Shown piece by piece: positions 26,634 through 55,002 of a DNA stretch of 64,000 bases; position 1 is the first letter of the stretch; each line of letters starts with the position of its first letter. A program made the position numbers and the translations under genes. The notes under the pieces are model-generated. The model ran no database searches. It saw only the letters and a program-made list of their open reading frames with translations, and was not told the origin of the DNA. This DNA comes from Myxococcota bacterium (GTDB lineage: Bacteria > Myxococcota_A > Polyangia > Nannocystales > Nannocystaceae): the NCBI GenBank assembly GCA_039028615.1, contig JBCCHT010000034.1:80944-144943 (forward strand). The letters run 5' to 3'.

Positions 26634-29600
26634 CTAGCGACCGCGGGTATTGCGATTGGAGGTGCCCAGACCGGCGGGCACCAGCAGATCGGTCAGCCGC
26701 GGCACCTCGGCGCCCCCCAAAAGCCGCTGGAAGCCCATGTCGTCGGTGGGCTCCACCGAGCCGGCCAGGTCTCGCGCCTGCCGGGCGAGCTCCTGCGCCC
26801 GCATCGGATCGCGCCCCGCGGCCCACAGAGCCTGTCCCAGCACGAGCTTGGTCTCGGCCAGGTTGAGCTGATCTTCGTCTTCGTGGTCGCGGATCTCGTG
26901 GGCACGCTCGAGCGACTCGATGGCGTTTTGCGGCGCATCGAGCTCGAGGTCGCTGCGACCGATTCCGGTGAGCGCATAGGCGATGAGGGGATGGTCCTCG
27001 GGCAGAGCGACCTCCCAGATCGTCAGCGCCTGCTGGTAGTGCTCGCGCGCCTCCATGTGCTCGCCGAGGCTCGACAGCGCGTTGGCCAGGTCGAGGTGCA
27101 CGGTCCCGAGATCGGGGTGGCTCTCGTCGAGCTCGGCTTGCCAGATCTCGAGCGCCCGCCGCAGGTGGGTGAGCCCGTCGAGCGGCCGCCCCTGCTCGGT
27201 GAGCACGAGGCCGAGGTTGGTGAGCGGATAGCCCAGATCGCGATGGTTCGCACCGACGGTGTCCTCGGCGATGGCCAGCGCGCGGCGGTGCAGGACCTCG
27301 GCCGCCTCGAGCTCTTCTTGGGTACGCTCGAGCAGCCCCTGGCGGTCGAGCACGCTGGCGAGCTCGCGACGCTGCCAGGGCGACATCGTGGGCGGCAGGG
27401 CTCCCTGTTCGTCGGTGGCGTGCACGGGGTCGAGGATCCAGCGCGCCCGCACGAAGGTGGCGTCGGCCTGCAGCTGCATGTCGGCCCCGAGCATGGCTCC
27501 ACCCAGGCGGGCCAGCGTCGCGCCGACCTGCGGGTGCTGGGCGCCCAAAATCTGCTCGCGCTTGGCGAGGGCCTGCTCGTAGACTTGGCGGGCGTCTTCG
27601 AAGAGCCCGAGGCCGTCGAGCGCCACCCCGAGGTCGTGGAGGAGATCGGCCATCACCAGCTCGGACACCGGCTCCTCGCGCTCGGCCAGGCGCTCGAGGG
27701 TTTCTTCGAGCTGCTCGCGGGCGTCCTCGTAGCGCCCCTGCTCGAGCTGCAACGACACCCGCGCCATGGTCAGGCGCACGCGCAGCGCGGGAGGATCGTG
27801 GGCGCGAACGATCGCCGCCTCGGCGGCCAGCGCCACGCGATGGCCCTCGGCATGCAAGCCCATGCGCTCGCCGACGATCCGCACCAGCTCGACCCAGGCT
27901 TCCGCTTCCAGCCCCGGACGCCGACCCGAGGCCGCCTGCACGACGACCTCCCGCAGCCGTCGCTCGGCGCCATGGGGCTCGTCCTGCATGTCGAGCGCCC
28001 GCGCCACGACCAGACCGACCTCCGCCTCCAGCCCCGGGTCTTGCAGGGCCCTGGCCGAGCCGAGCAAGGGCTCGGCCAGGCGAGCCGCCTCCGAGGGGGC
28101 GCCCGTCTGCAGCTGAACTCGGGCCTGTGCCACCAGCTCGCGTAGTGACGTGAGCCGCTGTCGTGAGTCCGAAGAGCTCGGGGGCTCGCGATCGGAGATG
28201 GCCAGCTCGAGCTCGACGTCGGCACACCGCGCCGGATCGGGCAGCGCGGTCGCGGCCACCAGCGCTCGCGACACCGTGCCTTCGTCGGCATCGGAGAGCT
28301 GCTCGATGAGCGCGGTCAAGTCGTTGCGCTGGACGTCGAGGCAGCGCAGCCCGGGCAGCGTGGACAGCTCCTGGTCGGTCTCGGGTGCCGCCGCCTGGCA
28401 CTGGCCCATCCACTCCTCGGACCAGCGCTCGGACCACGCATCGACGAGACGAATGGTGGACTGCCCCGAGGTGTCGGCGTAGGGCAGGCCCGTGGCCGAG
28501 AACGCGCTACGGACCGCTTCACGCTGCGGCGCGCCCCACTGATCTTCCAGCGAGACGGACTCGACCTGGCAACGATCCTGCTCGGGCGGCAGCGAGCTGA
28601 GATACGCACCCACCATCAACGAGCCCACGCCGAGGGTCACCGCCGCCGTCAGCCAGGGTCGCCGCGTCTCGGGCGGGTCCCGCTGCAGCTCGGCCAGCAG
28701 CGCGTCCATGGACGGAAAACGATCTTGGGGATCGATGGCTAGCCCGCGCAGCACCACCGACCGCAGCCAGTTGGGCACCCGGCTGCCCTTGGGAGCCGTG
28801 CGCACGTGCCCTTCGAGCACGTTGATCGCGAGCGAGGCGACGCTATTGCCTCCGAAGGGACGCTCGCCGTACAGGCCCTCGTACAGCGCAACGCAGAAGC
28901 TGAACTGATCGACCCAGGGATTGGAGCTCGTGCCCTTGTGCTGCTCGGGGGCCATATAGGCGGGCGTGCCGACCATCGCGCCCGTACGCGTGAGCACGAG
29001 GTTGGGCACGTCGAGCGGCTTGGGCACCGCGGTGGACTGCGCCTCGGCCAGGCGACTGGAGCTTTGGTTGGAGGACTGGCGAGCGAGGCCGAAGTCCATC
29101 ACCAGCACCCGATCGCCGCGACCGATGAGCACGTTGTCCGGCTTGAAGTCGCGGTGCACCAGCCCCACCGCGTGGGCGGCCGCCAGACCTCGGCCCGCCT
29201 TGACGAAGACCTCGATGATCTCGCTCCACTCGTGGTTGCCCTGCTCGAGCCACGCGCGCAGGGTCAGCCCGTCGATGAACTCCATCGCGATGAAGACCCG
29301 GTCCTCGAGGGTGCCGACATCGTGCACGGTGATGACGTGCGTGTGCGAGAGCTTGGCCATGGCCTTGGCCTCGCGGAGCAACCGCTCGCGACCGTCGCTG
29401 CCCCCGAGTGACGCGCTGGCCTGACCGTGCATGACCTTGAGCGCGACCTTGCGATCCAGCTCGGGATCGAAGGCCGCATACACGACGCCCATGCCACCCG
29501 CGCCCACCCGCTCGAGCACGGTGTAGCGCCCGACCTTGGTGCCCGCGACGATCCGATCCTCGATCTCGATCGAGTCCGGGATGTCCTCGACGAAGCTGGG

Positions 29601-29669
29601 GGCGGTCACCTCCAGGTCGATGTCGTCGGCGGAGGCCATGCTGCGGCCAGCGCTGATCTCGGGGTCCAT
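26634..29669 (-). CDS. Membrane Ser/Thr protein kinase with C-terminal TPR repeats
   Basis: VGAGGMGVVY, VALK, HRDFKPDN, DFGLA, GTPAYMAPE, TM, kinesin-light-chain-type TPRs. Start uncertain. Confidence 0.93.
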   Translation of the reverse strand: MDPEISAGRSMASADDIDLEVTAPSFVEDIPDSIEIEDRIVAGTKVGRYTVLERVGAGGMGVVYAAFDPELDRKVALKVMHGQASASLGGSDGRERLLREAKAMAKLSHTHVITVHDVGTLEDRVFIAMEFIDGLTLRAWLEQGNHEWSEIIEVFVKAGRGLAAAHAVGLVHRDFKPDNVLIGRGDRVLVMDFGLARQSSNQSSSRLAEAQSTAVPKPLDVPNLVLTRTGAMVGTPAYMAPEQHKGTSSNPWVDQFSFCVALYEGLYGERPFGGNSVASLAINVLEGHVRTAPKGSRVPNWLRSVVLRGLAIDPQDRFPSMDALLAELQRDPPETRRPWLTAAVTLGVGSLMVGAYLSSLPPEQDRCQVESVSLEDQWGAPQREAVRSAFSATGLPYADTSGQSTIRLVDAWSERWSEEWMGQCQAAAPETDQELSTLPGLRCLDVQRNDLTALIEQLSDADEGTVSRALVAATALPDPARCADVELELAISDREPPSSSDSRQRLTSLRELVAQARVQLQTGAPSEAARLAEPLLGSARALQDPGLEAEVGLVVARALDMQDEPHGAERRLREVVVQAASGRRPGLEAEAWVELVRIVGERMGLHAEGHRVALAAEAAIVRAHDPPALRVRLTMARVSLQLEQGRYEDAREQLEETLERLAEREEPVSELVMADLLHDLGVALDGLGLFEDARQVYEQALAKREQILGAQHPQVGATLARLGGAMLGADMQLQADATFVRARWILDPVHATDEQGALPPTMSPWQRRELASVLDRQGLLERTQEELEAAEVLHRRALAIAEDTVGANHRDLGYPLTNLGLVLTEQGRPLDGLTHLRRALEIWQAELDESHPDLGTVHLDLANALSSLGEHMEAREHYQQALTIWEVALPEDHPLIAYALTGIGRSDLELDAPQNAIESLERAHEIRDHEDEDQLNLAETKLVLGQALWAAGRDPMRAQELARQARDLAGSVEPTDDMGFQRLLGGAEVPRLTDLLVPAGLGTSNRNTRGR

Positions 29670-29857
29670 GAACTTCGCCAGCATGCCGGAGTCCCGCGCG
29701 TAGAACAACGTGCAGACGGTCGCACCCCGCCGTCGCGCGTCGCCCGGTCCCATCGCCGGACCACCCGAACGAGCCGCGAACCACTCGCCGACGAAAAGCG
29801 ACCGCTCGCGAAGCTTCGAGTGCGCCCCACCTTCACGTCCGAGGCATCATGGGTGGG

Positions 29858-38741: not shown

Positions 38742-40136
38742 TCAGCCCCCGGCCCCTTCGCCGCCCACCTCGGCGTATGCGCGGGCGAACTCGGGGCCGA
38801 ACACGTGTTCGGTGATGTTCCGATCGGCCTCGGTGAGCTCTTCGTAGCGCTGCACGAAGGCCTTCCAGGCCGACGCGCCGCGGCTGCCCCACGCGCTCGA
38901 AACCCCGCGCTCGATCTCGGCCGGATCGAGGCGCGCGAGCAAGCTCCGCACGCCTTCCATCACGCCGTTGATGAGCGCGACCTGGTGGATCATCAGGTCC
39001 GCGTAGACGCCGGTCAGCTCCTGCGTGCGGTGGGGCCCGCCCTTTTGCCAGTCGAGCAGGTACTTCAGGACGTTCTCCGGCGTGCCCGCGGCATGCAGCG
39101 GCGTGAACTCCTTGATGGTGCGGACGCCCATCTCGCGACCGAACTGCTCCTGGCCCTTTTGCAGCTCGACGAAGGCCTTGGCGCTCGCCTGCAGCACGTC
39201 GCCCACGCAGGCCAAGAAGCGCTCGGCGTCCTCGGAGCTGCGGGGCACCTCTTCGTCGGGGCTCATGGTCTGGCTCAGCCGCTGCACCGCGGACATGCCT
39301 TCGCCCTCGCCTCCACCACCGCCGCTCGCCCCGGGCACGTTGGCCCCGAGCTGACGGGCGAAGCCCACGAACTCTTTTTCGTCGGCCAGGGCCGGGAACT
39401 CGCGGGCCAGCACCGACACCGCGAACTCGTGCAGCGACGGGTGCATGCCCTGCAGCGCAGACTGCAGCGCGTTGCCGACCTGCGACCACGACTGCCGGTA
39501 CACGTCGTAGAGCGGACGCACCTGCTGGATCGCATGGTGCACGTCGGACATCTGCACGTGCGCCGTGCCGGGCCCGGACGCGGGCACGGGCTGCGAAGGG
39601 CCGCGATCGATCGAGCCCTGCATCGCGTTGCCGGCATGGCCGTACACGGGCGCAGGCGGTTGGTGCTGACCGAGCGCGGGCCCGGGAGGCTGCGGCATCG
39701 GTGGTTGATGAATCGGCGCCGGCGGAACCGATTGCGGAGCCTGGTGTGGGACCTGCGGCGGATACCCGGTGGGCGGCGCCACCGAAGGGGCCGGAGCAGC
39801 TTCGTAGCCCGAGGGGTAGATCTGCGAGACGTCGGCGCGATTGAAGCGGAGCTCCAGCTTACCGATGGTCACCGACAACATGTCGCCGACCACCACCGCC
39901 TCGCCCGCTTGGATCTTGCGCCCGTTGAGCAGCGTGCCGTTGGTCGAGCCGAGGTCGAAGAACTTGGCCTGCCCGTCATCGAAACGCACGACCGCGTGCC
40001 AGCCCGAGACGAACGGGAACGGCAGCGGAAGGTCGTTGAGCGGATTGCGCCCGATTCGGACGGGCGACGAGCCAAACGTATGGTCTGCCGTCGTCCCCGC
40101 CTCGGAGTCGAACACGGTGATCACCACGGGCCGCAT
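38742..40136 (-). CDS. tagH: T6SS-associated FHA protein TagH/Fha
   Basis: FHA RIGRN...VSGWHA...DLGSTNGT; Pro/Gln linker; C-terminal DLMIHQVALINGV...LARLDP...FGPEFARAY, typical of the T6SS Fha C-domain. Confidence 0.88.
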   Translation of the reverse strand: MRPVVITVFDSEAGTTADHTFGSSPVRIGRNPLNDLPLPFPFVSGWHAVVRFDDGQAKFFDLGSTNGTLLNGRKIQAGEAVVVGDMLSVTIGKLELRFNRADVSQIYPSGYEAAPAPSVAPPTGYPPQVPHQAPQSVPPAPIHQPPMPQPPGPALGQHQPPAPVYGHAGNAMQGSIDRGPSQPVPASGPGTAHVQMSDVHHAIQQVRPLYDVYRQSWSQVGNALQSALQGMHPSLHEFAVSVLAREFPALADEKEFVGFARQLGANVPGASGGGGGEGEGMSAVQRLSQTMSPDEEVPRSSEDAERFLACVGDVLQASAKAFVELQKGQEQFGREMGVRTIKEFTPLHAAGTPENVLKYLLDWQKGGPHRTQELTGVYADLMIHQVALINGVMEGVRSLLARLDPAEIERGVSSAWGSRGASAWKAFVQRYEELTEADRNITEHVFGPEFARAYAEVGGEGAGG

Positions 40137-40338
40137 GGACGCACGATGCCCCGGCTTCGGGCCGGAGGTGGATGGGAGCGTAACACGGGCCCCAAAACAA
40201 CAACCACGGTCCAGCGGTTCAGGCCCGGCGACCGTGTAGCCGGCCGTCCTGCGCCTCGATCACATAGCGCGAATGCCGCCCGTGCTAGGATGAAGGTTCG
40301 CTGTCGCGGGAACGCGCAGCGCCGGTGCTCGTGCGGTC

Positions 40339-42156
40339 ATGGCCTCCAACTCGCATTCATCGTCCGATGAGGACACCGGCTCCTCTGGAGCGCTGAGGCT
40401 GGTCACGCCTTCGGCCCAGGGCGGGACTGCGAGCGGGGACACGGGGGAGGAGTCCAAGGACTCGGGCCAGGGCGACTTCAACCTCCGCATCCTGAACCCG
40501 ATGTTCAGGTACATGAGGGCCAAGTTCGGCGCCGACGTCCTGGACGACGTGGTCCGCGACTGCGGGATCGCCCCCGAGACGATCCGCCGCAACAACGAGT
40601 GGATCCGTCACGAGCAGCTCGAGCGCCTGCTCTCCGCCGCCCGGGAGATGACCGGCAGCGACGAAGAGTTCATGCGGGCCTGCACCTTCGAGCTGAAGAA
40701 GCAGTACGGCGCGTTCATCCTCATCGTCCGCGGGATGTCGGTCGGCATGACCTTCCGCATGATGGCCCGAACCAGTCCCATGGTCTGCCGGGCGAGCTAC
40801 TTCGAGGTCGTCGACGGCAGCCGCACTTCGGTGCGGGTCCGGTACGTCACCCAGCACAACGAGAGCCGACTGAGCTGCTTGTCGCGACAGGCGCAGCTCA
40901 AGATGGGCCCCACGCTGTTCATGGGCATGGCGCCCGCGCGCCTCAGCGAGCACAGCTGCGTGGCGCACGGCGACGACTGCTGCGAATACGAGCTGAGCTG
41001 GTACGAGCCGCTGCGGACCCGCCGGGTCATCGCTGGGCTCGCGCTCGGGGCCGCAGCCGCAGCCGCGATCCCCACCAGCTGGGCCGCGCCCGTGCTCGCG
41101 TTCACCGTGCTGCCGCTGCTCGGCGGCATCGCGGGCGCCTCGATCGAGCTGCGCCGCCTCATCGACGAGCACCTCAAGTTCTCCGACACCACCGCCCGCG
41201 AGATGGAGCAGATCGTCGGCCAGCATACCCAGGCCATGGACGAGCTGACCGCCCTGCAAGAGCGCGAGCGCAACTGGAGCCGCTTGCTCGAGCAAGCGGT
41301 GTCCGACCGGACCCTCAAGCTCAACACCATCGTGCGGCGCCTCAAGTCGGTGCTCCGCCGCCGCACGGGCGAGTTCCCGGCGCTGCCCAGCGACCTCCAG
41401 CAGCCCCTCGACGCGCTCACCAGCCTCGCCGACGACCTCTCCGACGACGCGTCCGACCAGCAGTCGCCAGCCCACAACCCCACCAGCGAGAGCGCGGTCG
41501 ATCGCGTGTCCAAGCTGGTCGGTGAGCTGGTCGACATCGCCGAGCACGACCCGGTCCGCAACCAAGACGGGCCCGAGGAAGTCATGGTCGACGAGCTCGT
41601 CGCTCGGATCCGCCGCCACCTCAAGGCGACGATGATCGGCCGGGACGTCCGCATCACGGTGTTCCAGACCCGCGAGGCGCCCGAGCGCATCGTGACCGTC
41701 CGGACGATGCTCGAGCGCATCATCGACAACCTGCTGTTCAACGCCAGCCGGCACACCGAGCGCGGCAGCATCGTGGTCGAGGTCGGCGGTACGCCGGGCA
41801 GCCTGTTGCTGAAGCTCTCCGATACCGGCGAAGGGGTGGCCACCGAGCGCCTCGAGCAGGTCTTCGGCAACGACATGGCCAGCGCCAGCCTGCCCGCGCA
41901 CAACTCGGGCCTGAGTTCGGCCGCCGGGTTGCTCGATCGCCTGGGTGGGCGGCTCGAGGTCATGAGCGAGCCCAAGGTGGGTACCACCTTGTGGGTCTAC
42001 TTCCCCTTGGACATCCGTCGCGAAGGACAAGGGGATCGCGCTCGTAGTGAAGGCACCGCTGCCCCGCAGTCGGACGAGCCTCGCTCCGAGATGGTCGGTC
42101 GCGTCGTCACGATCCGGGCCCGCAGCGGCTCCGGCTCGCACGACGCCGCGGACTGA
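40339..42156 (+). CDS. Membrane sensor with V4R/H-NOX-like N-domain and GHKL ATPase domain; His-less (pseudo) histidine kinase
   Basis: N-domain ends CVAHGDDCCEYELSW; two TMs; coiled coil; H-box reads FPALPSDLQQPL; N-box IIDNLLFNASRHT; G1 LSDTGEG; G2 degenerate HNSGL; GTTLWVYFPL. Confidence 0.8.
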   Translation: MASNSHSSSDEDTGSSGALRLVTPSAQGGTASGDTGEESKDSGQGDFNLRILNPMFRYMRAKFGADVLDDVVRDCGIAPETIRRNNEWIRHEQLERLLSAAREMTGSDEEFMRACTFELKKQYGAFILIVRGMSVGMTFRMMARTSPMVCRASYFEVVDGSRTSVRVRYVTQHNESRLSCLSRQAQLKMGPTLFMGMAPARLSEHSCVAHGDDCCEYELSWYEPLRTRRVIAGLALGAAAAAAIPTSWAAPVLAFTVLPLLGGIAGASIELRRLIDEHLKFSDTTAREMEQIVGQHTQAMDELTALQERERNWSRLLEQAVSDRTLKLNTIVRRLKSVLRRRTGEFPALPSDLQQPLDALTSLADDLSDDASDQQSPAHNPTSESAVDRVSKLVGELVDIAEHDPVRNQDGPEEVMVDELVARIRRHLKATMIGRDVRITVFQTREAPERIVTVRTMLERIIDNLLFNASRHTERGSIVVEVGGTPGSLLLKLSDTGEGVATERLEQVFGNDMASASLPAHNSGLSSAAGLLDRLGGRLEVMSEPKVGTTLWVYFPLDIRREGQGDRARSEGTAAPQSDEPRSEMVGRVVTIRARSGSGSHDAAD

Positions 42157-42213
42157 ACGGGGCTTTGTGCCCCCTTCCTACCTTCGCCCCCTTAACCTTT
42201 GGTTCGTACTCCG

Positions 42214-43947
42214 ATGACTGCCCCAACGCCCTCCGGGGAACGCATGGTCGACATCATGCTCCGCTACCTGCGAGCGGAGGGGACCCGCGTGGTCTTTGGT
42301 GTGCCGGGCGGGCTGCTGCACCCCTTCTTCACCGCCATCGAAGAAGACCCCGAGCTGCTGCTGGTGGTGACCAAGCACGAAGCCGGCGCGGCGTTCATGG
42401 CCGATGGCTACGCCCGCTCCACTGGCTCGCTGTCGGTCTGCGCGGGCACCTCGGGCCCCGGCGCCACCAACCTGCTCACCGGGGTCGCGGCGGCGTTCTC
42501 CGATGGCGTGCCCATGCTCGTGATCACCGGGCAGGCGCCGTCCCACACCATCGGTCGCGGTGCCGCCCAGGAGATGGCCCCCGAGGACGTCGACATCGTC
42601 GCGATGTTCCGGCCCGTCACCAAGTACTCGGTCATGATCCCCGCGCCCGACCGGGTCTCGCACCATCTCCGTCGGGCGCTGCGGCTCGCGCTCACCGGGC
42701 AGCCGGGCCCCGTGCACCTCAACGTGCCCGTCGACTTCTGGGAGCGCCCCGCTCGACCGGAGTGGTTCGCCCCCCAGAGCTACCGCCCCTCGACCCAGAC
42801 CTTCGACCGCGAGGCGGTTCGCGAGGCGTCGCGCTGGCTGGTCAACGCCGAGTACCCCGTGCTGCTGGTGGGCTCGGGCGTGGCCACCTCGAGCGCGCGT
42901 GTCGAGACGCGGGCACTCGCCGAGCGCCTGCCCGCCCGCGTCGCCACCACCCCGCGCGCCAAGGGGGTCTTTCCCGAGGACCACCCGCTATCGCTCGGGG
43001 TCATGGGCTTCGCCGGGCACACCACCGCGCGCGAGACCCTGCTCTCCGAGCGCGTCGACGTCTTGCTCACGGTCGGCGCCTCGCTCAACGAGACCACCAC
43101 CCTCAACTGGCATCCCAAGCTGATGCCCAGCCAGGCGCTCATCCAGCTCGACATCTCCGTCGACCGAATCGGCCGCAACTACCCGGTCACCGTGCCGCTG
43201 GTCGGCGACGCCCGCACCGTGCTCAACGAGCTGGCCTTCCACATCCAGCGCGAGCTCAAGGGCACCGTCACCGCGTCGCGCTGGGCCGAAGAGCCTCCCA
43301 TCGACCACGGCGACAGCTTCTACTCCGAGCCCGAGCTACGGAACTCCGACGCCATTCCCGTCACGCCCCAGCGCTGGCGCGTCGAGCTGGGCGAGATCCT
43401 GCCGGGCAACGCCATCGTGTTCTCCGACATCGGCGGGCACATGCTCTTCAACATCCAAGACCTGGCCATCCGCCACCGCCAGAGCTTCATGCTCAACCTG
43501 GGCTTCGGCTCCATGGGGCACGGCACAGCAGCGCCCGTCGGGGCCGCTCTGGCTGCGCCCCATCGCCCGGTGGTGGCGATCATCGGCGACGCCTGCTTCA
43601 CGATGTGCGGCATGGAGCTGCTCACCGCGGCCGAGTACGACGTGCCCGTCATCTGGATCGTCGAGAACAACCAGATGCACGGCATCACCTGGCACGGTAG
43701 CCGGCAGGTGGGCAACGGTGAGCCGATGGACGCCATCCGCTATCGTCGCTCCATCGAGATCGCCCGCATCTCACAATCCATGGGGGTCGACTCCTGGGTC
43801 GTGGATCGCCCCGGGCAGCTGCGCTCCGCGTTCATGGAGGCGCTCGAGCGCCGACGCCCCTCCCTCATCGAGATCCTCGTCGACGGGTCCATCCCTCCCC
43901 CGCTCGGTGACCGAGCCAAGTCCATCGCGGGCTTCCGCGATCGTTGA
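42214..43947 (+). CDS. Thiamine-diphosphate-dependent enzyme (acetolactate-synthase-like / acyloin-synthase-like)
   Basis: VFGVPGG, KHEAGAAFMADGYAR, TSGPGATN, PGPVHLNVP, GSMGHG, ThDP motif IIGDACF...IVENN; no ilvN/ilvC nearby. Confidence 0.9.
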   Translation: MTAPTPSGERMVDIMLRYLRAEGTRVVFGVPGGLLHPFFTAIEEDPELLLVVTKHEAGAAFMADGYARSTGSLSVCAGTSGPGATNLLTGVAAAFSDGVPMLVITGQAPSHTIGRGAAQEMAPEDVDIVAMFRPVTKYSVMIPAPDRVSHHLRRALRLALTGQPGPVHLNVPVDFWERPARPEWFAPQSYRPSTQTFDREAVREASRWLVNAEYPVLLVGSGVATSSARVETRALAERLPARVATTPRAKGVFPEDHPLSLGVMGFAGHTTARETLLSERVDVLLTVGASLNETTTLNWHPKLMPSQALIQLDISVDRIGRNYPVTVPLVGDARTVLNELAFHIQRELKGTVTASRWAEEPPIDHGDSFYSEPELRNSDAIPVTPQRWRVELGEILPGNAIVFSDIGGHMLFNIQDLAIRHRQSFMLNLGFGSMGHGTAAPVGAALAAPHRPVVAIIGDACFTMCGMELLTAAEYDVPVIWIVENNQMHGITWHGSRQVGNGEPMDAIRYRRSIEIARISQSMGVDSWVVDRPGQLRSAFMEALERRRPSLIEILVDGSIPPPLGDRAKSIAGFRDR

Positions 43948-43958
43948 GCCTTTGCCCG

Positions 43959-44666
43959 ATGAGCTCTGAACTCCGAGGTCCCATCGAAGACCGGCCGTGG
44001 CCGACCACCCTGCCCGGGCGCGTGGTCCGACCGGGGGCCGAGCCTCGGATCCGCGGCTACGACCTGCACGGCGACCTCGTACGGCACTACGGCTTCGCCG
44101 AGATCGCCCTCATCGCGCTGCACGGACAGGCTCCCGCGGGTAACGAGGGTCGGCTCTTCGAGCTTTCGCTGAGCTTGCTGAGTCCTTGCTCCGTCGCCGA
44201 AGCCCCCAGCCACGGGGCGCAGCTGGTGCGTCGGTGTGGCGCCCGCAGTGCAGCCGTGCTCTCGGCGGGCGCGGTGGCCCTGAGCGAGCAGGCCCAGGCC
44301 GTCGTGGACGAACATCGCGAGCTGCTCGCGTGGCTCGACGCCCCCGAGTCTGTGCTGCCGCCCGCCTATCAGAGCACCGAGCCGGCCGAGACCGACGCGG
44401 TGGCCCGCTTCGCCGAGCACGTGCGGGCCCTGGGGATCACGCTCCCCATCCTCGAGCAGACCCCGACCTTCCGGGCGGCCCTGCTCGCCGCGCTGCACCA
44501 CTGCGGGCTGCGGGATCCCGAGCGCCTGCAGGTGGCCTGGGTGCTGGCGCGGCTGCCCACCGTGCTGGCCGAGGCCCTCGAGCAACCCAGCGGCGAGCTC
44601 CGCAGCTACCCCATCGACCTGCCCCACTACGCGTACGTCCCCTCCGACGACGAACCCAGCCCCTGA
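43959..44666 (+). CDS. Citrate synthase / citryl-CoA lyase-fold protein A (degenerate)
   Basis: IRGYDLHGDLVRHYGFAEIALIALHGQAP and WVLARLPTVLAEALEQ resemble the N- and C-termini of citryl-CoA lyase; no GFGH or NxD motif. Confidence 0.65.
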   Translation: MSSELRGPIEDRPWPTTLPGRVVRPGAEPRIRGYDLHGDLVRHYGFAEIALIALHGQAPAGNEGRLFELSLSLLSPCSVAEAPSHGAQLVRRCGARSAAVLSAGAVALSEQAQAVVDEHRELLAWLDAPESVLPPAYQSTEPAETDAVARFAEHVRALGITLPILEQTPTFRAALLAALHHCGLRDPERLQVAWVLARLPTVLAEALEQPSGELRSYPIDLPHYAYVPSDDEPSP

Positions 44667-44680
44667 GCGGCCCGCGAACC

Positions 44681-45487
44681 ATGTCCGCGCCATCCATCGT
44701 CACCCACGTGGGTCATGCTTCGTGGGGCGACAACCTCTACCGGGGCTACGGCGTGCTGAACGACCTGGCGGGCACCGACGGGTTCTGGAGCATGATCTCG
44801 ATGTCGCTGGGCGGACCTCGGCTCGAACCACGCCAGTGCCGGGTGCTCGACGAGCTGTCGACCTGTAGCTTCGCCGCCGACCCGAGGGTGTGGCCGATGA
44901 AGGCGGTGCGGATGGGTGCGGCCTACGGCAGCGTCACCGCGGGCTTGTGCGTGGGGCTGCTGGCAGTCGACCACGCCCGCATGGGCCCCGCGATCGCGGG
45001 CGGAGCGGCGAAGATCTTCGTGGGCCTGATGCCACCGGGCGAGCCGATGCCCCCCACCGAAGGACTCCACACCGAGCTCGATGCCCTGGTGGCCTCGGGG
45101 AGTCGCCTCGATGGTTTCGGCGTGCCCTTCCGTCCCCGAGACGAGCGCGTCGATGCCCTGCGGCGCTGCATGGCCGCGCACCCGGAGGACGAGGGCCCCT
45201 ACTGGCGGCTGATGAACGCCGTCGACGAGTACCTCGCGGCGCACCATCGGCTCCCCATCAACATCGCGGGCGCAGCCGCAGCGGTCGCCCTCGATCTCGG
45301 TTTTCGGCCGCGACAGATCACCCACCTGCCCGCCGCCCTGCTGCTGTCGAACTTCCTCGCCAACGCCTACGAGGGTGCAGCCCAGCGTCCCGCCGTCTTG
45401 CAGCGGCTCCCCGATGCGGTGATCGAGTACGTGGGTGAGCCCGACCGTCGCAGCCCCCGAGCCCTCGCGGCGGAACCCGGCGGCTGA
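44681..45487 (+). CDS. Citrate synthase / citryl-CoA lyase-fold protein B (degenerate)
   Basis: YRGYGVLNDLAG, DPRVWP, LDGFGVPFRPRDER (compare GFGHxxxxxxDPR), PINIAGAAAAVALDLGF (compare NVDG...DLGF). Confidence 0.72.
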   Translation: MSAPSIVTHVGHASWGDNLYRGYGVLNDLAGTDGFWSMISMSLGGPRLEPRQCRVLDELSTCSFAADPRVWPMKAVRMGAAYGSVTAGLCVGLLAVDHARMGPAIAGGAAKIFVGLMPPGEPMPPTEGLHTELDALVASGSRLDGFGVPFRPRDERVDALRRCMAAHPEDEGPYWRLMNAVDEYLAAHHRLPINIAGAAAAVALDLGFRPRQITHLPAALLLSNFLANAYEGAAQRPAVLQRLPDAVIEYVGEPDRRSPRALAAEPGG

Positions 45488-45547: not shown

Positions 45548-48340
45548 CTACTCGTCGTCGTCCGGGGCCGACTGCGTGACGTCGTCGGCACTGCCCTCGT
45601 CGTCACCGCCCGCGTCCGGGGCCTCGATCGCCGCGGGCGGCTCGGGCTCCGACGCCTCGGGCTCCTCCGACGCCTCGCTGCTCGGTGCCTGCTGCACGGC
45701 CGCCGACTGGGCGGGAGAGTCGGCCTCTTCGAAGTCGAAGTGCCAACGACCGCCAAAGCCCAGGCCAATGGTGAGCTTGGGCGGGATGTCGCCCTCGGCC
45801 ATGCGCTCGAGCAGGGCGCGCGACAGGACCGGCATCAAGGAGCCTCGCATCGCGTGGTCCAGCGCGCGGGCGCCCGTCTCCGACTCGGTGCAGCGCGAGA
45901 CCATCTCGGAGATGAGCGAGTCGGCGAAGATCGTCTGCAGGCCGTGGGCCTCTTCGAGGCGCTTGCCCAGCCCGCCGAGCTTGAGCTTGGCGATGTCGGT
46001 GAGGATCTCCGGGTCCATCGGGCGATACGGCACGATGCTCATCCGGGCGAGCAACGCCGGCTTGAAGTGCTTGCTCAGCGACGGCCGCACCGCCTCGAGC
46101 ACGTCGCTGACGGGCGGCTTTTTGCCGTCCTCGTGCAGGCTCATGATGACGTCGGTGGCCAGGTTGCTGGTGAGGATGACGACCGTGTTGCGGAAGTTGA
46201 CGATCCGCCCCTCGCCGTCGCTCAGCATGCCCTTGTCGAAGACCTGATAGAACAGGTTCATGACCTCGAGGTCGGCCTTCTCGCACTCGTCGAGCAGGAC
46301 CACCGAGTAGGGGCGCTTGCGCACCGCCTCGGTGAGCACGCCGCCCTCGCCGTAGCCCACGTAGCCTGGAGGCGAGCCGATGAGCCGCGACACGGTGTGC
46401 TTCTCCTGGAACTCGCTCATGTTGATGGTGACCATCGAGCGCTCGCCACCGTAGAGCAGGTCGGCCAGCGCCAGCGCGGTCTCCGTCTTACCGACACCAC
46501 TGGGGCCGACGAAGAGCATCACCGAGATCGGCGTCTGCGGGTTGCGAACGCCCGCGTGGGACATGCGAATCGACTCGGACACGGCCGCCACCGCGTGGTC
46601 CTGGCCCTTGATCCGCGCCTGGAGGTGCTCCTCGAGGTTGAGCATCAGCTCGATGGAGCTGCTCCGCATCTTGCCCACGGGGATGCCGGTCCAGTCGGCC
46701 ACCACCTGCGCGATGGCGTCGCGATCGACCTCGGCGTGCACCAGCGGCTCCTCGCCTTGCGCCTCGAGCAGCGTGGCCCGGGCCTTCTCGACCGCCGCCT
46801 GCCGCTGCTCGCGGACGTTGTCGGGCGACTCCCGCAGCGCGGCCGTGGCCTCGCGCACGGCCACGATGGCTTCGCGCTCGGCGTTGAGCTTGGTCTCGAC
46901 CGTCTCGATCTCGCCGTCGATCTCGGCGATGCGGGTCCGCAGCTCTTCGACGCGCTCGCGGCTGTCGTCACCCGCGGCGGCATCGGCCAGGTCGCGGGTC
47001 CGGGAGTCGAGCTCGCGCTGGAGGCTGGCCTGCTCGGAGCGCAGGGTGACCAGGGCGGGCGGCGGAGCGTCTTGCTCGATGCGCACGCGGGCGGCCGCCG
47101 TGTCGAGCAGGTCGACCGCCTTGTCCGGCAGCAGGCGCCCCGAGATGTAACGATCCGACAGCTCCACCGCCGCCTCCACGGCCTCGTCGCGGATGACCGT
47201 GTCGTGGGCGTTCTCGTAGGTGGGGCGGATGCCTCGCAGCATCACCGTGGCGTCGGCCACGTTGGGCTCGGCGCAGTTGACCGGCTGGAAGCGGCGCTCG
47301 AGCGCGGCGTCCTTTTCGAAGTACTTCTTGTACTCGGACCAGGTGGTGGCCGCGATGGTGCGGAACTCACCGCGGGCCAGCGCCGGCTTGAGCAGGTTGG
47401 GGATGTCGTTGTCGCCACCGCCCCCGCCGACGATGGTGTGGGCCTCGTCGATGAACACGATGATCGGCGTGGGCGAGCCCTTGACCTCGGCGATGACGCG
47501 CTTGAGGCGGTTTTCCATCTCGCCCCGCACGCCCGCGCCGGCCTTGAGCAGGCCCATGTCCAGGCTGAGCAGCTCGACCTGCTGCAGCTCGGCGGGCACG
47601 TCTTTGGCCACGATGGCTCGGGCCAGGCCCTCGACCAGCGCCGTCTTACCGACACCCGGCTCGCCGACCACGATGGGGTTGTTCTTGCGACGACGCGCGA
47701 GGATGTCGATGACCTGCCGAATCTCGCGGTCGCGACCGAAGATGGGGTCGATCTCGCCCTTCTTGGCCTTGTCGGTGAACGAGATGGTGAAGCGGTCCAG
47801 CGCCTCGCGGCCGGGGGCCGACGCTCCCGTGGGGCCCTGGCCGGGCTCGGAGGGCGGCGCCATCTCGGGCGTCTCCTTCGAGGCGGCCACCATCGCGTCG
47901 AAGGACTTCTTGAACTCGTCGGCGTCGATCTCCTCGATGATCGGGAACTCGTCGGCCGAGTAGCGTCCGGGTCGCTCGATGTACTGCAGCAGCAGGTCGG
48001 CGCCTCGCATCTGCACCGCGCCGCGCTCGAGCGAGGCCGCGACCCACGTGTCCTCGAGCCAGTTGAAGAGCGTCTCGGAGAACACCGGGCGCCCCGCGTT
48101 GCCCGTGCGCAACGACTGGAGGCTCGTCTCGATGGACGTCGCCAGCTTGAGTCGGTCCTTGCGGAAGAAGTGCAGCACGTGCCCGACGTCGCCGTCTTCG
48201 AGCTCGACCAAGCCCAGCAGCAGGTGCTCGACGGTGATCTCGTAGTAGCGACCGCCCGCCGCCCGTTCGACGACGGACTCGAGGATCTTGGTGCAGGTGG
48301 GGTTCAGGCGACGGACGAGGGAGCGAGGATCGGCGCGCAT
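45548..48340 (-). CDS. tssH: T6SS AAA+ ATPase TssH/ClpV
   Basis: IFGRDREIRQVIDILARRRKNNPIVVGEPGVGKT, second NBD GPSGVGKTETA, SRLIGSPPGYVGYGEGG; follows tssG. Confidence 0.95.
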   Translation of the reverse strand: MRADPRSLVRRLNPTCTKILESVVERAAGGRYYEITVEHLLLGLVELEDGDVGHVLHFFRKDRLKLATSIETSLQSLRTGNAGRPVFSETLFNWLEDTWVAASLERGAVQMRGADLLLQYIERPGRYSADEFPIIEEIDADEFKKSFDAMVAASKETPEMAPPSEPGQGPTGASAPGREALDRFTISFTDKAKKGEIDPIFGRDREIRQVIDILARRRKNNPIVVGEPGVGKTALVEGLARAIVAKDVPAELQQVELLSLDMGLLKAGAGVRGEMENRLKRVIAEVKGSPTPIIVFIDEAHTIVGGGGGDNDIPNLLKPALARGEFRTIAATTWSEYKKYFEKDAALERRFQPVNCAEPNVADATVMLRGIRPTYENAHDTVIRDEAVEAAVELSDRYISGRLLPDKAVDLLDTAAARVRIEQDAPPPALVTLRSEQASLQRELDSRTRDLADAAAGDDSRERVEELRTRIAEIDGEIETVETKLNAEREAIVAVREATAALRESPDNVREQRQAAVEKARATLLEAQGEEPLVHAEVDRDAIAQVVADWTGIPVGKMRSSSIELMLNLEEHLQARIKGQDHAVAAVSESIRMSHAGVRNPQTPISVMLFVGPSGVGKTETALALADLLYGGERSMVTINMSEFQEKHTVSRLIGSPPGYVGYGEGGVLTEAVRKRPYSVVLLDECEKADLEVMNLFYQVFDKGMLSDGEGRIVNFRNTVVILTSNLATDVIMSLHEDGKKPPVSDVLEAVRPSLSKHFKPALLARMSIVPYRPMDPEILTDIAKLKLGGLGKRLEEAHGLQTIFADSLISEMVSRCTESETGARALDHAMRGSLMPVLSRALLERMAEGDIPPKLTIGLGFGGRWHFDFEEADSPAQSAAVQQAPSSEASEEPEASEPEPPAAIEAPDAGGDDEGSADDVTQSAPDDDE

Positions 48341-52539: not shown

Positions 52540-55002
52540 ATGCTTCGGATCACGCTCACCAAAGAAGGCGAATCTCCCCAGGTCAGTACCTTCGACAAGA
52601 GGGAGATCACGGTCGGCCGCACCAACGCCAACGATCTCATGATCGCGGAGCCCGGCGTGTCGAGCCACCACGCGCGCATCCTGTTTACGGGCGATGGCGT
52701 GACGATCATCGACCTCGAGTCGACCAACGGCACCTTCGTCAACGGCGAGCGAATTCGTGGCCCCGCGATGCTCCAGCCGGGCGACGAGGTCTATATCTGC
52801 GCGTTCCAGCTGGACTTCGAGCTCGGGGGCGGGGCCCCCCAAGCGAGTGCCCCGCCCGCGGCCGACGCTCCGCCGATGATGGGACAGCCGCCCGCGATGG
52901 ACGCGGGGCCCCAAATGCTCAGCTCGCCCGCTCCGGTGGAAGCGCCCGAGTACCCCACGCCCGCCGATGCGGGACCGCCTCCGTTGGCCGGGGACGCACC
53001 GCCTCCTCTCGATGCGCCGCCGATGATGGGTGGAGATGCATCGGGCGCGCCGCCTCCCCTCGATGCGCCGCCGATGATGGACGCACCGCCACCGATGGCT
53101 CCGGCGCCCGCGATGCCGCCGATGATGGACGCCGGAGGCGACGCTCCGCCGCCGCTCGGTCCACCGCCGTCGCTCGAGGCTCCGCCGGACCTCGCTCCGC
53201 CCGGGGACCTGCCGCCTCCGCTGACGCCACCGCCCGGTCCGCTCGGCGCACCGCCTCCTGCCGCTCCCGCTCCGGCTGCGCCTGTCCCCGCGGCGCCTGC
53301 CCCCGCCGCACCTGCTCCCGCCGCACCCGCGCCCGCGGGCCCGCCAGGCGATCTGCCGCCGCCTCTGACTCCGCCCGCTCCCGCGTCGCCCCAGCCCGTG
53401 CCGGGCGGCGAAGAAGAGCGATCGTCGCCGTCGATGGTCTCCGGCCAAATCTCCCCGCCGGAGCCGGCCCTACCCGAGACCCCGGCCGGGCTCGCGCCCC
53501 CTCCCGCTGCGCCGGAACCGATGCCCCCCGCACCGAGCCCCGAGCCGCTGCCCCCCGTCTCGGCCCCGCCGACGCCGGAGCCGATGGTGGCTCCGGCCGC
53601 GTCCATGCCCGCGGCAGTCGCACCGAGCCCCGAGCCGGCCACGGCCGCGCCCACGGTCAGCCATGCCCTCGGGATGGCGCCCGCGATGGCACCCGCGCCC
53701 ATGGCTGTCGCCGCGCCGGCTCCTTCTGTGCCGCCTCCGCCGAGCAGCGACCTCTCCGACCTCAAGGGCCCCAACGCCGCGACCGAGGCCTGTGCCCGTG
53801 TGTTCGCGTTGGTCCACTACCACCTCGCGCCAGACGGCTCCTTGCCCCCACGCGACGGCACGACGCGAGCCGAGGCTCGTCGCGAAGCCCAGCGATTGTT
53901 CACCGAGGTCGCCCAGCGGGTCCCCGAGGTGCAGGCGCGACCGTGGGCCAATCGCCTCGCCAACGAGCTGTGCGGGCTCGGAGCCTTGAGCGCACCGCTG
54001 GCCGAACCCGAGGTCGTCGACATCTTCGTCCACGGCCCCGACCGCGTGCTCGTGCACCGCGAAGGACAAGCGCTCACGCCCGGCAATGCGATGTTCTCGT
54101 GCCCCGCGGCGGTCGACGTCGTCGTACGACGGCTGACCCAGCAACCCTTCGGCCCCGACCACCCCATGATCGACGCCCGCACGACGGATGGGGCGGATGT
54201 TCAGGCGATCCACGGCTCGGCCGCGAATCCCGGACCCTTGGTGACGATCCACCGCGATCGCGCGGGGGCCACGGGAGCCGGCTTGGAATCCTTGTTACAG
54301 CGCCGGGCCCTGCCCTCCGGCATGGCCACGCTGCTGCACCACTGCGTGCAGGCGGGGCTCAACATCCTGGTCAGCGGCGGCGCGGGAGCGCGGACTTTTC
54401 CGTGGCTCGCGGCCCTGGCCGCGGAGGCCCCCGAGGGTGAGCGGCAGGTCGTGGTCCGCCCCGGCACCGAGCCCGAGGCGCTGCCCGCCAACGCGGTGGT
54501 GGTCCAGGCTCGCTCCATGCCTCCCGCCGACGGGCTGTCCAGCGCCCAACGAGCCGTGCGCGGAGCCATGGGCCTGGCGCCGGATCGCCTGGTCGCCCAC
54601 GAGGTGAGCGGCGCTGAAGCCAGCGATGTGCTGGCCGCCATGGGCCGAGGACTCCGTGGTGCGGTGGTGTCGGTCCGGGCCGCCACGGCCGATGGCGCGC
54701 TTGCGCGACTCAGTGCGCTGGCCGGCCTGGCCGGTGATGCCCCGGATGCGGCCGCCCGCGCGCGTCACGTGGGCCAGACCGTCGACCTCATCATCGCGCT
54801 GTCGCGCTTTGCCGACGGACACACCCGGGTCACGCAGCTGTCCGAGGTCACCGTTTCGAGCGCGGGATCGGCCCAGGCCGTCGATTTGGTCACCTTCGAC
54901 CCCGCCACGGGTCGCTGGGCCCCCACAGGGGTCTCTCCATCACTGTTTGCACAGCTGCAGCGACGCGGGATCGCGGTCGATGTCAGCCTGCTCAACGAGT
55001 GA
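52540..55002 (+). CDS. FHA domain + ~300-aa Pro-rich linker + CpaF/TadA(VirB11)-like domain with dead ATPase motifs
   Basis: FHA VGRT...VSSHHA...DLESTNGT; GLGALSAPLAEPEVVDIFVHGPDRV, PMIDARTTDG; Walker A SGGAGARTFP; PDRLVAHEVSGAEA; RFADGHTRVTQLSEV. Confidence 0.85.
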   Translation: MLRITLTKEGESPQVSTFDKREITVGRTNANDLMIAEPGVSSHHARILFTGDGVTIIDLESTNGTFVNGERIRGPAMLQPGDEVYICAFQLDFELGGGAPQASAPPAADAPPMMGQPPAMDAGPQMLSSPAPVEAPEYPTPADAGPPPLAGDAPPPLDAPPMMGGDASGAPPPLDAPPMMDAPPPMAPAPAMPPMMDAGGDAPPPLGPPPSLEAPPDLAPPGDLPPPLTPPPGPLGAPPPAAPAPAAPVPAAPAPAAPAPAAPAPAGPPGDLPPPLTPPAPASPQPVPGGEEERSSPSMVSGQISPPEPALPETPAGLAPPPAAPEPMPPAPSPEPLPPVSAPPTPEPMVAPAASMPAAVAPSPEPATAAPTVSHALGMAPAMAPAPMAVAAPAPSVPPPPSSDLSDLKGPNAATEACARVFALVHYHLAPDGSLPPRDGTTRAEARREAQRLFTEVAQRVPEVQARPWANRLANELCGLGALSAPLAEPEVVDIFVHGPDRVLVHREGQALTPGNAMFSCPAAVDVVVRRLTQQPFGPDHPMIDARTTDGADVQAIHGSAANPGPLVTIHRDRAGATGAGLESLLQRRALPSGMATLLHHCVQAGLNILVSGGAGARTFPWLAALAAEAPEGERQVVVRPGTEPEALPANAVVVQARSMPPADGLSSAQRAVRGAMGLAPDRLVAHEVSGAEASDVLAAMGRGLRGAVVSVRAATADGALARLSALAGLAGDAPDAAARARHVGQTVDLIIALSRFADGHTRVTQLSEVTVSSAGSAQAVDLVTFDPATGRWAPTGVSPSLFAQLQRRGIAVDVSLLNE

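Follow-up and report, generated by a model that had tools for sequence, protein, structure and literature searches.

What would a sensor gene, a thiamin diphosphate (ThDP) enzyme gene and two genes for proteins related to citrate synthase (CS) do together in the middle of a type VI secretion system (T6SS) locus? The question is raised by positions 40,339 to 45,487 of a 64,000-nt stretch of DNA (the window hereafter; GenBank assembly GCA_039028615.1, contig JBCCHT010000034.1, positions 80,944 to 144,943, forward strand) from a member of the Nannocystaceae, phylum Myxococcota. An original prediction, made from the letters alone, had proposed that the enzymes make an acyloin or acyl-CoA-derived metabolite that the adjacent sensor detects, possibly in a quorum-sensing-like circuit tied to T6SS control. 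On the evidence set out below we lean, by a modest degree, towards a mobile small-molecule make-and-sense cassette of Myxococcota, in which acyloin synthesis would be followed by acylation or condensation by the two CS-like proteins (CS1 and CS2) and by sensing through an H-NOX/V4R domain. We regard the cassette as a variant of the CybE-based acyloin/furanolide gene cluster, with an undescribed putative second enzyme. Its genes and the two genes flanking them are as follows (loci, genomes and contigs are numbered with L, G and C).

38742..40136, minus strand: tagH (T6SS FHA protein), left flank, outside the cassette (Pfam FHA and T6SS_FHA_C; TIGR03354 E-value 2.4e-30)
40339..42156, plus strand: sensor P0001, 605 amino acids; H-NOX/V4R-fold domain, hydrophobic segment, linker and degenerate histidine-kinase core (probable pseudokinase)
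42214..43947, plus strand: ThDP enzyme P0002, 577 amino acids; candidate CybE/BbmA-type acyloin (alpha-hydroxy-beta-keto acid) synthase (Pfam TPP domains; PDB matches)
43959..44666, plus strand: CS1 (P0003), 235 amino acids; shortened citryl-CoA-lyase-like paralogue without the GFG loop, probable partner subunit (profile matches)
44681..45487, plus strand: CS2 (P0004), 268 amino acids; citryl-CoA-lyase fold with the catalytic His/His/Asp replaced (model, Foldseek, alignment to PDB 6hxp)
45548..48340, minus strand: clpV/tssH, right flank, convergent with the cassette (TIGR03345 1077.8 bits, over cut-off)

The layout proved to be exactly as predicted: the four open reading frames are co-oriented, are separated by gaps of 57, 11 and 14 nt, and lie between clpV and tagH, 202 nt from the latter and 60 nt from the end of the former. 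Besides these two genes, the T6SS locus in the window contains hcp, tssJ, tssK, tssL, tssM, tagF and tssB. TagH scored 106.7 bits against TIGR03354, under the cut-off of 120.25, and was over the cut-off for Pfam T6SS_FHA_C. The GC content of the cassette (0.69-0.72) is like that of its surroundings, and the sensor domain, CS1 and CS2 are each single-copy in the genome. Since all four genes recur in the loci of relatives and in further phylum-level loci, their grouping is not due to chance.

The ThDP enzyme and its exchangeable partner genes

P0002 contains the three TPP domains N, M and C. Its best PDB matches were BbmA (E-value 3e-128) and CsmA (5e-93), and the best acetohydroxyacid synthase (AHAS) match was at 1.3e-69. 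The top names among the NCBIfam models were acetolactate synthases, with P0002 under the cut-off for all 25 models shown (377.5 bits against a cut-off of 538.35 for TIGR00118). The catalytic glutamate E56 and the GDX..NN motif (G458-D459 and N485-N486) are kept, and the position of BbmA G484 is likewise glycine. The acceptor-binding motif RFDDR, typical of AHAS, is absent from P0002, which reads GASLNETT at that position; the genome's own ilvB-like gene, on C12, carries GARFDDR and sits in an apparent ilv/leu-type cluster (neighbours named by eye from their N-termini). P0002 is nearest to BbmA and CsmA, CybE-type acyloin synthases of furanolide pathways, and as judged from its sequence is a candidate of the carboligase type. 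The best matches and the missing AHAS motif thus agree with the expectation that it is not an acetolactate synthase. In the accessible passages of PMC12395478, CsmA and 'BpmA' are CybE homologues giving alpha-hydroxy-beta-keto acids; CybE joins two 2-oxo acids, and CybF then builds the furanolide with an acyl-CoA.

The genes found beside close orthologues of P0002 fall into two alternatives. Among the best 80 of 563 genome matches, 54 ThDP copies were at least 52% identical; 42 of these lay by the CS pair, seven by a FabH-like gene (100 bits, within 3 kb), none by both and five by neither. Two of the seven FabH cases are one Streptomyces gene counted at either end of the chromosome, and three of the five partner-less copies lie within 2 kb of the downstream contig end. 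Two more FabH-partnered cases were found (L162 and L163). FabH-partnered copies are scattered on the tree, and a single clade was rejected by the approximately unbiased (AU) test (p=0.000365) on 30 chosen rows, namely 28 of the 85 tree rows plus L162 and L163; L094, a duplicate of L093, and the partner-less close copies were left out. The exchange of CS pair and FabH-like gene arose repeatedly. L063 has the same tagH-clpV slot, an 83% identical enzyme and the same sensor, with a FabH-like gene and two P450 genes instead of the CS pair; the only CS2 match in its genome (G002) is a distant one at another place. The reverse swap is seen with C23, where a ThDP gene is followed by a FabH-like gene and the sister enzymes at L033 and L035 by the CS pair. 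The FabH-like partners keep the thiolase-fold active-site cysteine, and the active-site stretches of CS-partnered and FabH-partnered ThDP orthologues are nearly identical. Because the swap arose repeatedly and both partners never occurred together under the counting rule, the CS pair probably stands in for the furanolide-synthase step. FabH-like genes, which the original prediction had suggested looking for, do occur, as alternatives to the pair.

Tailoring genes lie near some copies, encoding P450s (L037 and L183), halogenases (L073 and L111) and a short-chain dehydrogenase/reductase (SDR; L027). The window cassette contains no FabH-like gene; the genome's strong FabH-like matches adjoin different ThDP genes, on C16 and C23. 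These two further ThDP and FabH-like pairs (G000:C23:32610-35424 and G000:C16:76891-79823) are candidate cybE/cybF-type furanolide clusters. At L048:460-5521 and L167:9331-15413, near this sensor type, a second ThDP and FabH pair is followed by STAS, SpoIIE-like phosphatase and anti-sigma-kinase-like genes, which form a stressosome-like module. Streptomyces orthologues of the ThDP enzyme (55% identical; L093/L094 and L096) with FabH-like genes are nested among myxobacterial sequences in the tree, and horizontal transfer in either direction is possible.

With regard to distribution, CS2 matches were found in 19 of 61 related genomes and in 64 of 401 genomes of the class, and matches to the ThDP enzyme (E≤1e-100) in 25 of 401 genomes of the phylum. 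Around CS2 matches, 18 loci comprised nine with all four genes between tagH and clpV, four with all four genes and no T6SS genes in the stretch and five other arrangements. Twenty further phylum-level loci, none with T6SS genes, divided into nine with all four genes, one cut by a contig end, seven with the enzyme trio and other regulators, one with FabH and two with the ThDP gene only. A ThDP gene was nearby in 20/20 further CS2 loci, and 39 of the 54 close ThDP orthologues adjoin this sensor type; the ThDP locus counts lean to close relatives, as only the best 80 matches were kept. A related-locus search seeded with P0004 gave no match. At the distant loci L158-L161 both CS profiles match, with a ThDP gene directly adjacent in L158-L160 and about 3 kb off in L161; the ORFs scanned at these loci included no TonB receptor. 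Overall the four genes, predicted to belong together, recur across Myxococcota loci with and without T6SS genes. The nearest named relatives are Nannocystaceae; the ThDP enzyme of Paraliomyxa miuraensis SMH-27-4 (L062) is 81% identical, and the Paraliomyxa proteins carry generic NCBI names only.

Several variants of the enzyme genes were also seen. A ThDP enzyme with a fused N-terminal receiver domain, with CS1/CS2 nearby, occurs at L183:11867-14023, L185:10563-12752 and L186:12067-14223 (Pfam support for L183 only, a locus that additionally has a P450 and a hybrid kinase), which suggests phosphorelay control of synthesis. At L079:6917-14819 the ThDP-CS1-CS2 trio is tandemly duplicated with a LuxR-type regulator between the copies. 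ThDP relatives of 41-45% identity in Elusimicrobia and Rokubacteria (L108, L117 and L126) are encoded alongside a large kinase and a family-5 solute-binding protein and have neither the CS pair nor FabH nearby; an O-methyltransferase gene lies beside them at L108 and L117.

The citrate-synthase-fold pair and the sensor

A citryl-CoA-lyase (CCL) fold or profile was found for both CS-like proteins, in line with the prediction, by model for CS2 and by profile only for CS1. The CS2 model (predicted local distance difference test score, pLDDT, 92.8) matched PDB 6hxp in Foldseek with an E-value of 3.7e-9 and a template-modelling (TM) score of 0.74. Residues catalytic in the citrate-synthase fold are the histidines aligned with DHG, HGG and GYGH of 6hxp, the aspartate of NVD and the arginine of DxR. 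In CS2 the three histidines are replaced by Pro68, Met101 and Val148 and the aspartate by Ala196, and only the arginine is retained. An active citrate synthase or citryl-CoA lyase was rejected for both proteins because the catalytic His/His/Asp are absent. Across 175 CS2 sequences, V148 occurs in 87% and position 196 is A, G or S, while a polar set (D67, R69, K74, R77, R151, D154, E155, R156, N194, D205, N228, E231 and R256) is 92-100% conserved, led by D154 and R156 (100%), R151 and R256 (99%) and E231 and D205 (98%); P68 also belongs to the near-invariant set.

CS1 matched profiles of citrate synthases and 6hxp, aligned to CS2 with an HHalign probability of 95.6 and matched NCBIfam PRK06224 with an E-value of 4.5e-6, far below cut-off. 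It lacks the GFG loop, has conserved H85, E205, P218, P222 and Y226, and matched only unnamed clusters in the ESM Atlas. The proportion of non-synonymous differences (pN) was 0.32-0.38 for CS1/CS2 against 0.12-0.13 for the ThDP enzyme; as the comparison with synonymous differences (pS 0.30-0.56) is near saturation, these values serve only for ranking conservation. Since the canonical catalytic residues are all absent, the case for catalysis by the pair is one from conservation only. The two proteins probably form a CS1:CS2 heteromer, CS2 carrying a rebuilt acyl-CoA-using site. The CS2 profile matched 1,376 representatives at 50% identity with E≤0.001, a number that includes true CCL/CS relatives, and 287 at 1e-30. 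Compared with the citryl-CoA lyase of Hydrogenobacter thermophilus (6hxp), the CCL module of ATP-citrate lyase and PRK06224, CS2 is alike in fold, size, GxG loop and the DxR arginine; unlike 6hxp and PRK06224, the cassette has two diverged paralogues, one of them truncated, with scores that reach about one fifth of the cut-off at most. In a Nannocystis metagenome-assembled genome (L139 / L158:1-8907) a single ThDP gene is accompanied by seven or more CS-like domains, some of them arranged in tandem in one frame, with an adjoining LysR regulator.

Two parts of the sensor P0001 are pertinent to its function.

40474..41016, plus strand: sensory domain, amino acids 46-226, H-NOX fold, V4R-type zinc motif C180/E204/C207/C215 (model pLDDT 92.3)
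41383..41409, plus strand: H-box remnant, amino acids 349-357, Ser where the phospho-acceptor His is expected (alignments)

The prediction of an H-NOX/V4R-like domain is upheld by the zinc motif, by Foldseek (H-NOX, E-value 4e-7) and by structural matches to VIA (Z 13.8, root-mean-square deviation 3.0, 171 aligned), the VirS ligand domain (Z 12.6), PoxR (7.7) and DmpR (7.0). The motif C-x22-24-E-x2-C-x7-C is present in 119 of 121 proteins (by sequence only). Only unnamed clusters in the ESM Atlas matched the domain. H-NOX haem sensors have a conserved proximal His and a YxSxR motif. No haem-ligating His is conserved here, the best column in the helix region reaching 50/121 with Pro147 in the window (from sequence, without structural superposition). 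A remnant of YxSxR is seen (Y169 in 61/121, S/T171 in 89/121, R/K173 in 80/121), with Y-V-T-Q-H in the window. As no His column exceeds 50/121 and the window has Pro, haem binding is unlikely, and a nitric oxide/haem sensor was rejected for want of a conserved haem-ligating His; judged by these residues, the domain is probably a haem-free, zinc-motif H-NOX/V4R domain. It resembles H-NOX domains and V4R sensors (DmpR/MopR/PoxR and the VirS N-terminal domain) in fold, zinc motif and partial Y-x-S/T-x-R, and differs from them in having no conserved haem-ligating His and in that a hydrophobic segment joins it to a kinase of the histidine type, which in this lineage is probably a pseudokinase. V4R sensors have a zinc site of three Cys and one Glu, and the characterised ones sense catabolic substrates such as phenols (accessible passages of PMC10715001 and PMC7264223).

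The hydrophobic segment lies between the sensory domain and the kinase core. The HATPase_c domain (PF02518) scored 55.9 bits, over cut-off, with altered N-box and G2 box, and no match to HisKA was found in P0001. The H-box is kept in 45 of 51 distinct locus sensors, a number that includes three missed by the pattern and added by eye. Its loss is seen in the window and the four loci nearest to it, and a separate loss in L086/L087. Neither this loss in a histidine-kinase-type sensor nor that of the catalytic residues in the two CS-like proteins was part of the original prediction. In a database set, from which three short proteins of 120 were dropped, the H-box is kept in 0/21 homologues of at least 50% identity and in 83/96 below 50%, 11 of the 13 without it in the latter group being relatives of 48-49%. 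Among close relatives the ATPase domain is the best-conserved part of the sensor (68-70%). Because the H-box is lost while the ATPase domain stays best conserved, we read the window sensor as a maintained pseudokinase, which P0001 probably is in this lineage. The cassette contains no response regulator.

The T6SS locus as a probable insertion site

T6SS-embedded copies make up 17 of the 54 close ThDP orthologues and form one clade with the window (FastTree support 1.0; Shimodaira-Hasegawa-like approximate likelihood ratio test, SH-aLRT, 98); the other 37 have no T6SS gene in the fetched stretch. Of 73 Nannocystaceae genomes, 50 have ClpV over the cut-off and 26 have this ThDP orthologue. Two genera (g14 and g17) have a ClpV match in 22/22 genomes and the ThDP orthologue in 0/22. 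The cassette was found in 0/14 other clpV loci examined. A related T6SS at L150 (ClpV 71%, TagH 64%) represents an empty site, in which clpV lies 204 nt from tagH without a cassette. Two promoter-like motifs of the form TGnTAnnnT lie back to back in the window.

40177..40187, minus strand: extended -10-like motif toward tagH (18/18 intergenic regions, 0.7 expected from shuffles; also at the empty site L150)
40281..40291, plus strand: extended -10-like motif toward the cassette (15/18 intergenic regions, 0.7 expected)

The 18 intergenic regions come from relatives and are not independent. No promoter came out of a standard sigma-70 scan; a single terminator-like site, against 0.2 expected, was not used as evidence. 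The tagH motif predates the insertion, since it is already at the empty site; together with the divergent motifs, this explains the layout by one insertion between two transcription units. The cassette looks to have entered the clpV-tagH gap once, in the ancestor of three Nannocystaceae genera. Of the predicted tie to T6SS control, the shared location stands, in one clade; control itself is weakly indicated, given the empty site, the ClpV-bearing genera without the orthologue and the older tagH motif. That the cassette is an obligatory T6SS component was rejected on the 17/54 count, the empty site and the 14 other clpV loci.

At L071:10232-15682 and L076:10215-15700 other genes, which from their N-terminal sequence we take to be photosynthesis cluster-like (puh/acsF-like), displace clpV directly after CS2. 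In G481 and G479, clpV is about 43 kb away. The clpV-tagH site may be an insertion hotspot. Elsewhere in the window, an FHA domain fused to a T2SSE-type ATPase region (weak match; 52540-55002, plus strand) is encoded in the T6SS locus, a 1947-aa DUF3686/AAA protein at 15586-21429 (plus strand) and a Ser/Thr kinase with TPR repeats at 26634-29753 (minus strand).

Competing readings and relation to known systems

We propose a plausible route for the make-and-sense cassette. From homology, the ThDP enzyme would join two 2-oxo acids into an alpha-hydroxy-beta-keto acid or acyloin, like CybE. The partner swap and the fold suggest that CS1 and CS2 may then acylate or condense the acyloin using an acyl-CoA to give a butenolide/furanolide-like or related product, the job that would fall to the FabH-like CybF in swapped loci, and P450s, a flavin halogenase or an SDR could tailor the product in some lineages. 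The product would bind the presumably co-transcribed sensor through its H-NOX/V4R domain, probably haem-free and zinc-stabilised; in most lineages the sensor would signal as an intact histidine kinase and in the lineage of the window as a conserved pseudokinase, without autophosphorylation. The cassette appears to have its own promoter motif, so that T6SS control would be possible and not required.

A number of observations weigh against this proposal. All canonical catalytic residues are missing in the CS proteins, CS1 is poorly conserved (26-46% identity), the sensor of the window itself has lost its H-box, and the cassette has no acyl-CoA ligase. At seven loci of a different family (L053-L059) the trio occurs with no sensor of this type, and in the stretches fetched a ThDP gene lies near 0/12 distant sensor homologues and 4/8 further close ones. 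At L200 the CS pair is followed, at a distance of about 2.4 kb, by a FabH-like gene, weak FabH matches at L083, L104 and L110 (80-87 bits) went uncounted under the 100-bit/3-kb rule, and the FabH-like partners, at most putative CybF orthologues, have ordinary FabH as their best PDB matches. The furanolide nostoclide, moreover, showed no autoinduction in the accessible passages of PMC9324945.

The replacement of every citrate-synthase catalytic residue would also fit a pair that does no chemistry and instead serves the ThDP enzyme as a regulatory or carrier subunit that binds CoA or the product, with the acyloin as end product. The much faster drift of CS1/CS2 than of the ThDP enzyme and the nearness of CS2 to a ThDP gene in all 20 further loci favour such a subunit, but CS2 keeps its tight set of polar invariants and the pair is exchanged for the gene of an intact thiolase-fold enzyme with an active-site cysteine; we hold it to be decidedly unlikely. 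Still less probable to us is a catabolic unit, in which the V4R-type domain detects an external compound that the ThDP enzyme and the CS pair cleave. The phenol-type ligands of characterised V4R domains and the lyase identity of the closest CS2 fold (6hxp) speak for it; its nearest ThDP relatives, however, are biosynthetic synthases, the extra genes encode a halogenase, P450s and FabH-like enzymes, and no recurring transporter or CoA ligase was seen in the inspected loci (not a systematic count). A plain acetolactate synthase clustered by chance with unrelated or decayed citrate-synthase genes is extremely improbable and largely refuted: the names of the top NCBIfam models are all that suggest it, and a plain AHAS was rejected on the sub-threshold scores, the missing motif and regulatory subunit, the separate genomic ilvB and the conservation of the cluster across the phylum.

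A dedicated T6SS-control circuit, in which signal and sensor switch tagH or the T6SS, is compatible with the make-and-sense cassette and, though conceivable, is unlikely in our judgement. The cassette has been retained in the tagH-clpV slot across three genera, the slot survived the change of partner enzyme at L063, the promoter motifs lie back to back, and loss of the H-box is mainly confined to one T6SS-embedded subclade. Against this stand the 37 copies without a T6SS gene in the fetched stretch, the two ClpV-bearing genera without the orthologue, the tagH motif already present at the empty site and the lack of a DNA-binding regulator in the cassette. We would also put forward, as a tentative and rather doubtful extension of the make-and-sense cassette, that CS1/CS2 are a new enzyme class, with a rebuilt active site on the citrate-synthase fold, which forms butenolides by ring closure from acyloins and acyl-CoAs and has converged on the role of CybF, that the product is a diffusible myxobacterial signal read by a haem-free H-NOX kinase, and that one Nannocystaceae lineage turned this kinase into a pseudokinase co-opted for T6SS control.

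The repeated exchange of CS pair and FabH-like gene gives a first testable job for the large undescribed CS2 family. If the make-and-sense cassette is real, proteins of citrate-synthase fold would be doing a new kind of chemistry, genome mining would gain a class of biosynthetic cluster to look for, and myxobacteria would have a candidate small-molecule signal paired with its receptor. P. miuraensis SMH-27-4 is a carrier available in culture.

Among known signalling systems, CAI-1 and LAI-1 are alpha-hydroxyketone autoinducers whose synthase adjoins a sensor kinase (CqsA/CqsS). The proposed acyloin-type signal and the position of the synthase by a sensor kinase are alike; CqsA, in contrast, is pyridoxal phosphate (PLP)-dependent, and CqsS senses through membrane helices. 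Literature searches, with most subscription papers outside their reach, listed no paper on a ThDP enzyme with a CS-fold pair; neither 'citrate' nor 'sensor' occurs in the main text of PMC13288894, and the main text of PMC9960870 is without 'furanolide', 'thiamine' and 'citrate'. Nostoclide is a density-dependent mediator, and is thus alike as an acyloin-type or acyloin-derived small-molecule mediator; the accessible passages name no receptor for it (PMC9324945). A bare cybE-cybF pair has been proposed, without genetic proof, for the deoxyenhygrolides of the marine myxobacteria Plesiocystis and Enhygromyxa (accessible passages of PMC8777810). With the furanolide clusters (cyanobacterin cybE/cybF, and BbmA and CsmA, PDB 8x3x and 8x3z) the cassette shares the CybE-type ThDP core, and close orthologues of the window enzyme adjoin FabH-like genes, some with P450 or halogenase tailoring. 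It differs from these clusters in that two non-homologous genes of citryl-CoA-lyase fold replace the FabH-like gene, that a dedicated H-NOX/V4R kinase is presumably co-transcribed, and that neither a CoA ligase nor an ammonia lyase is present. New here are the sensor type found in myxobacteria, the exchange with FabH, the pseudokinase and the account of how the cassette came to be inserted.

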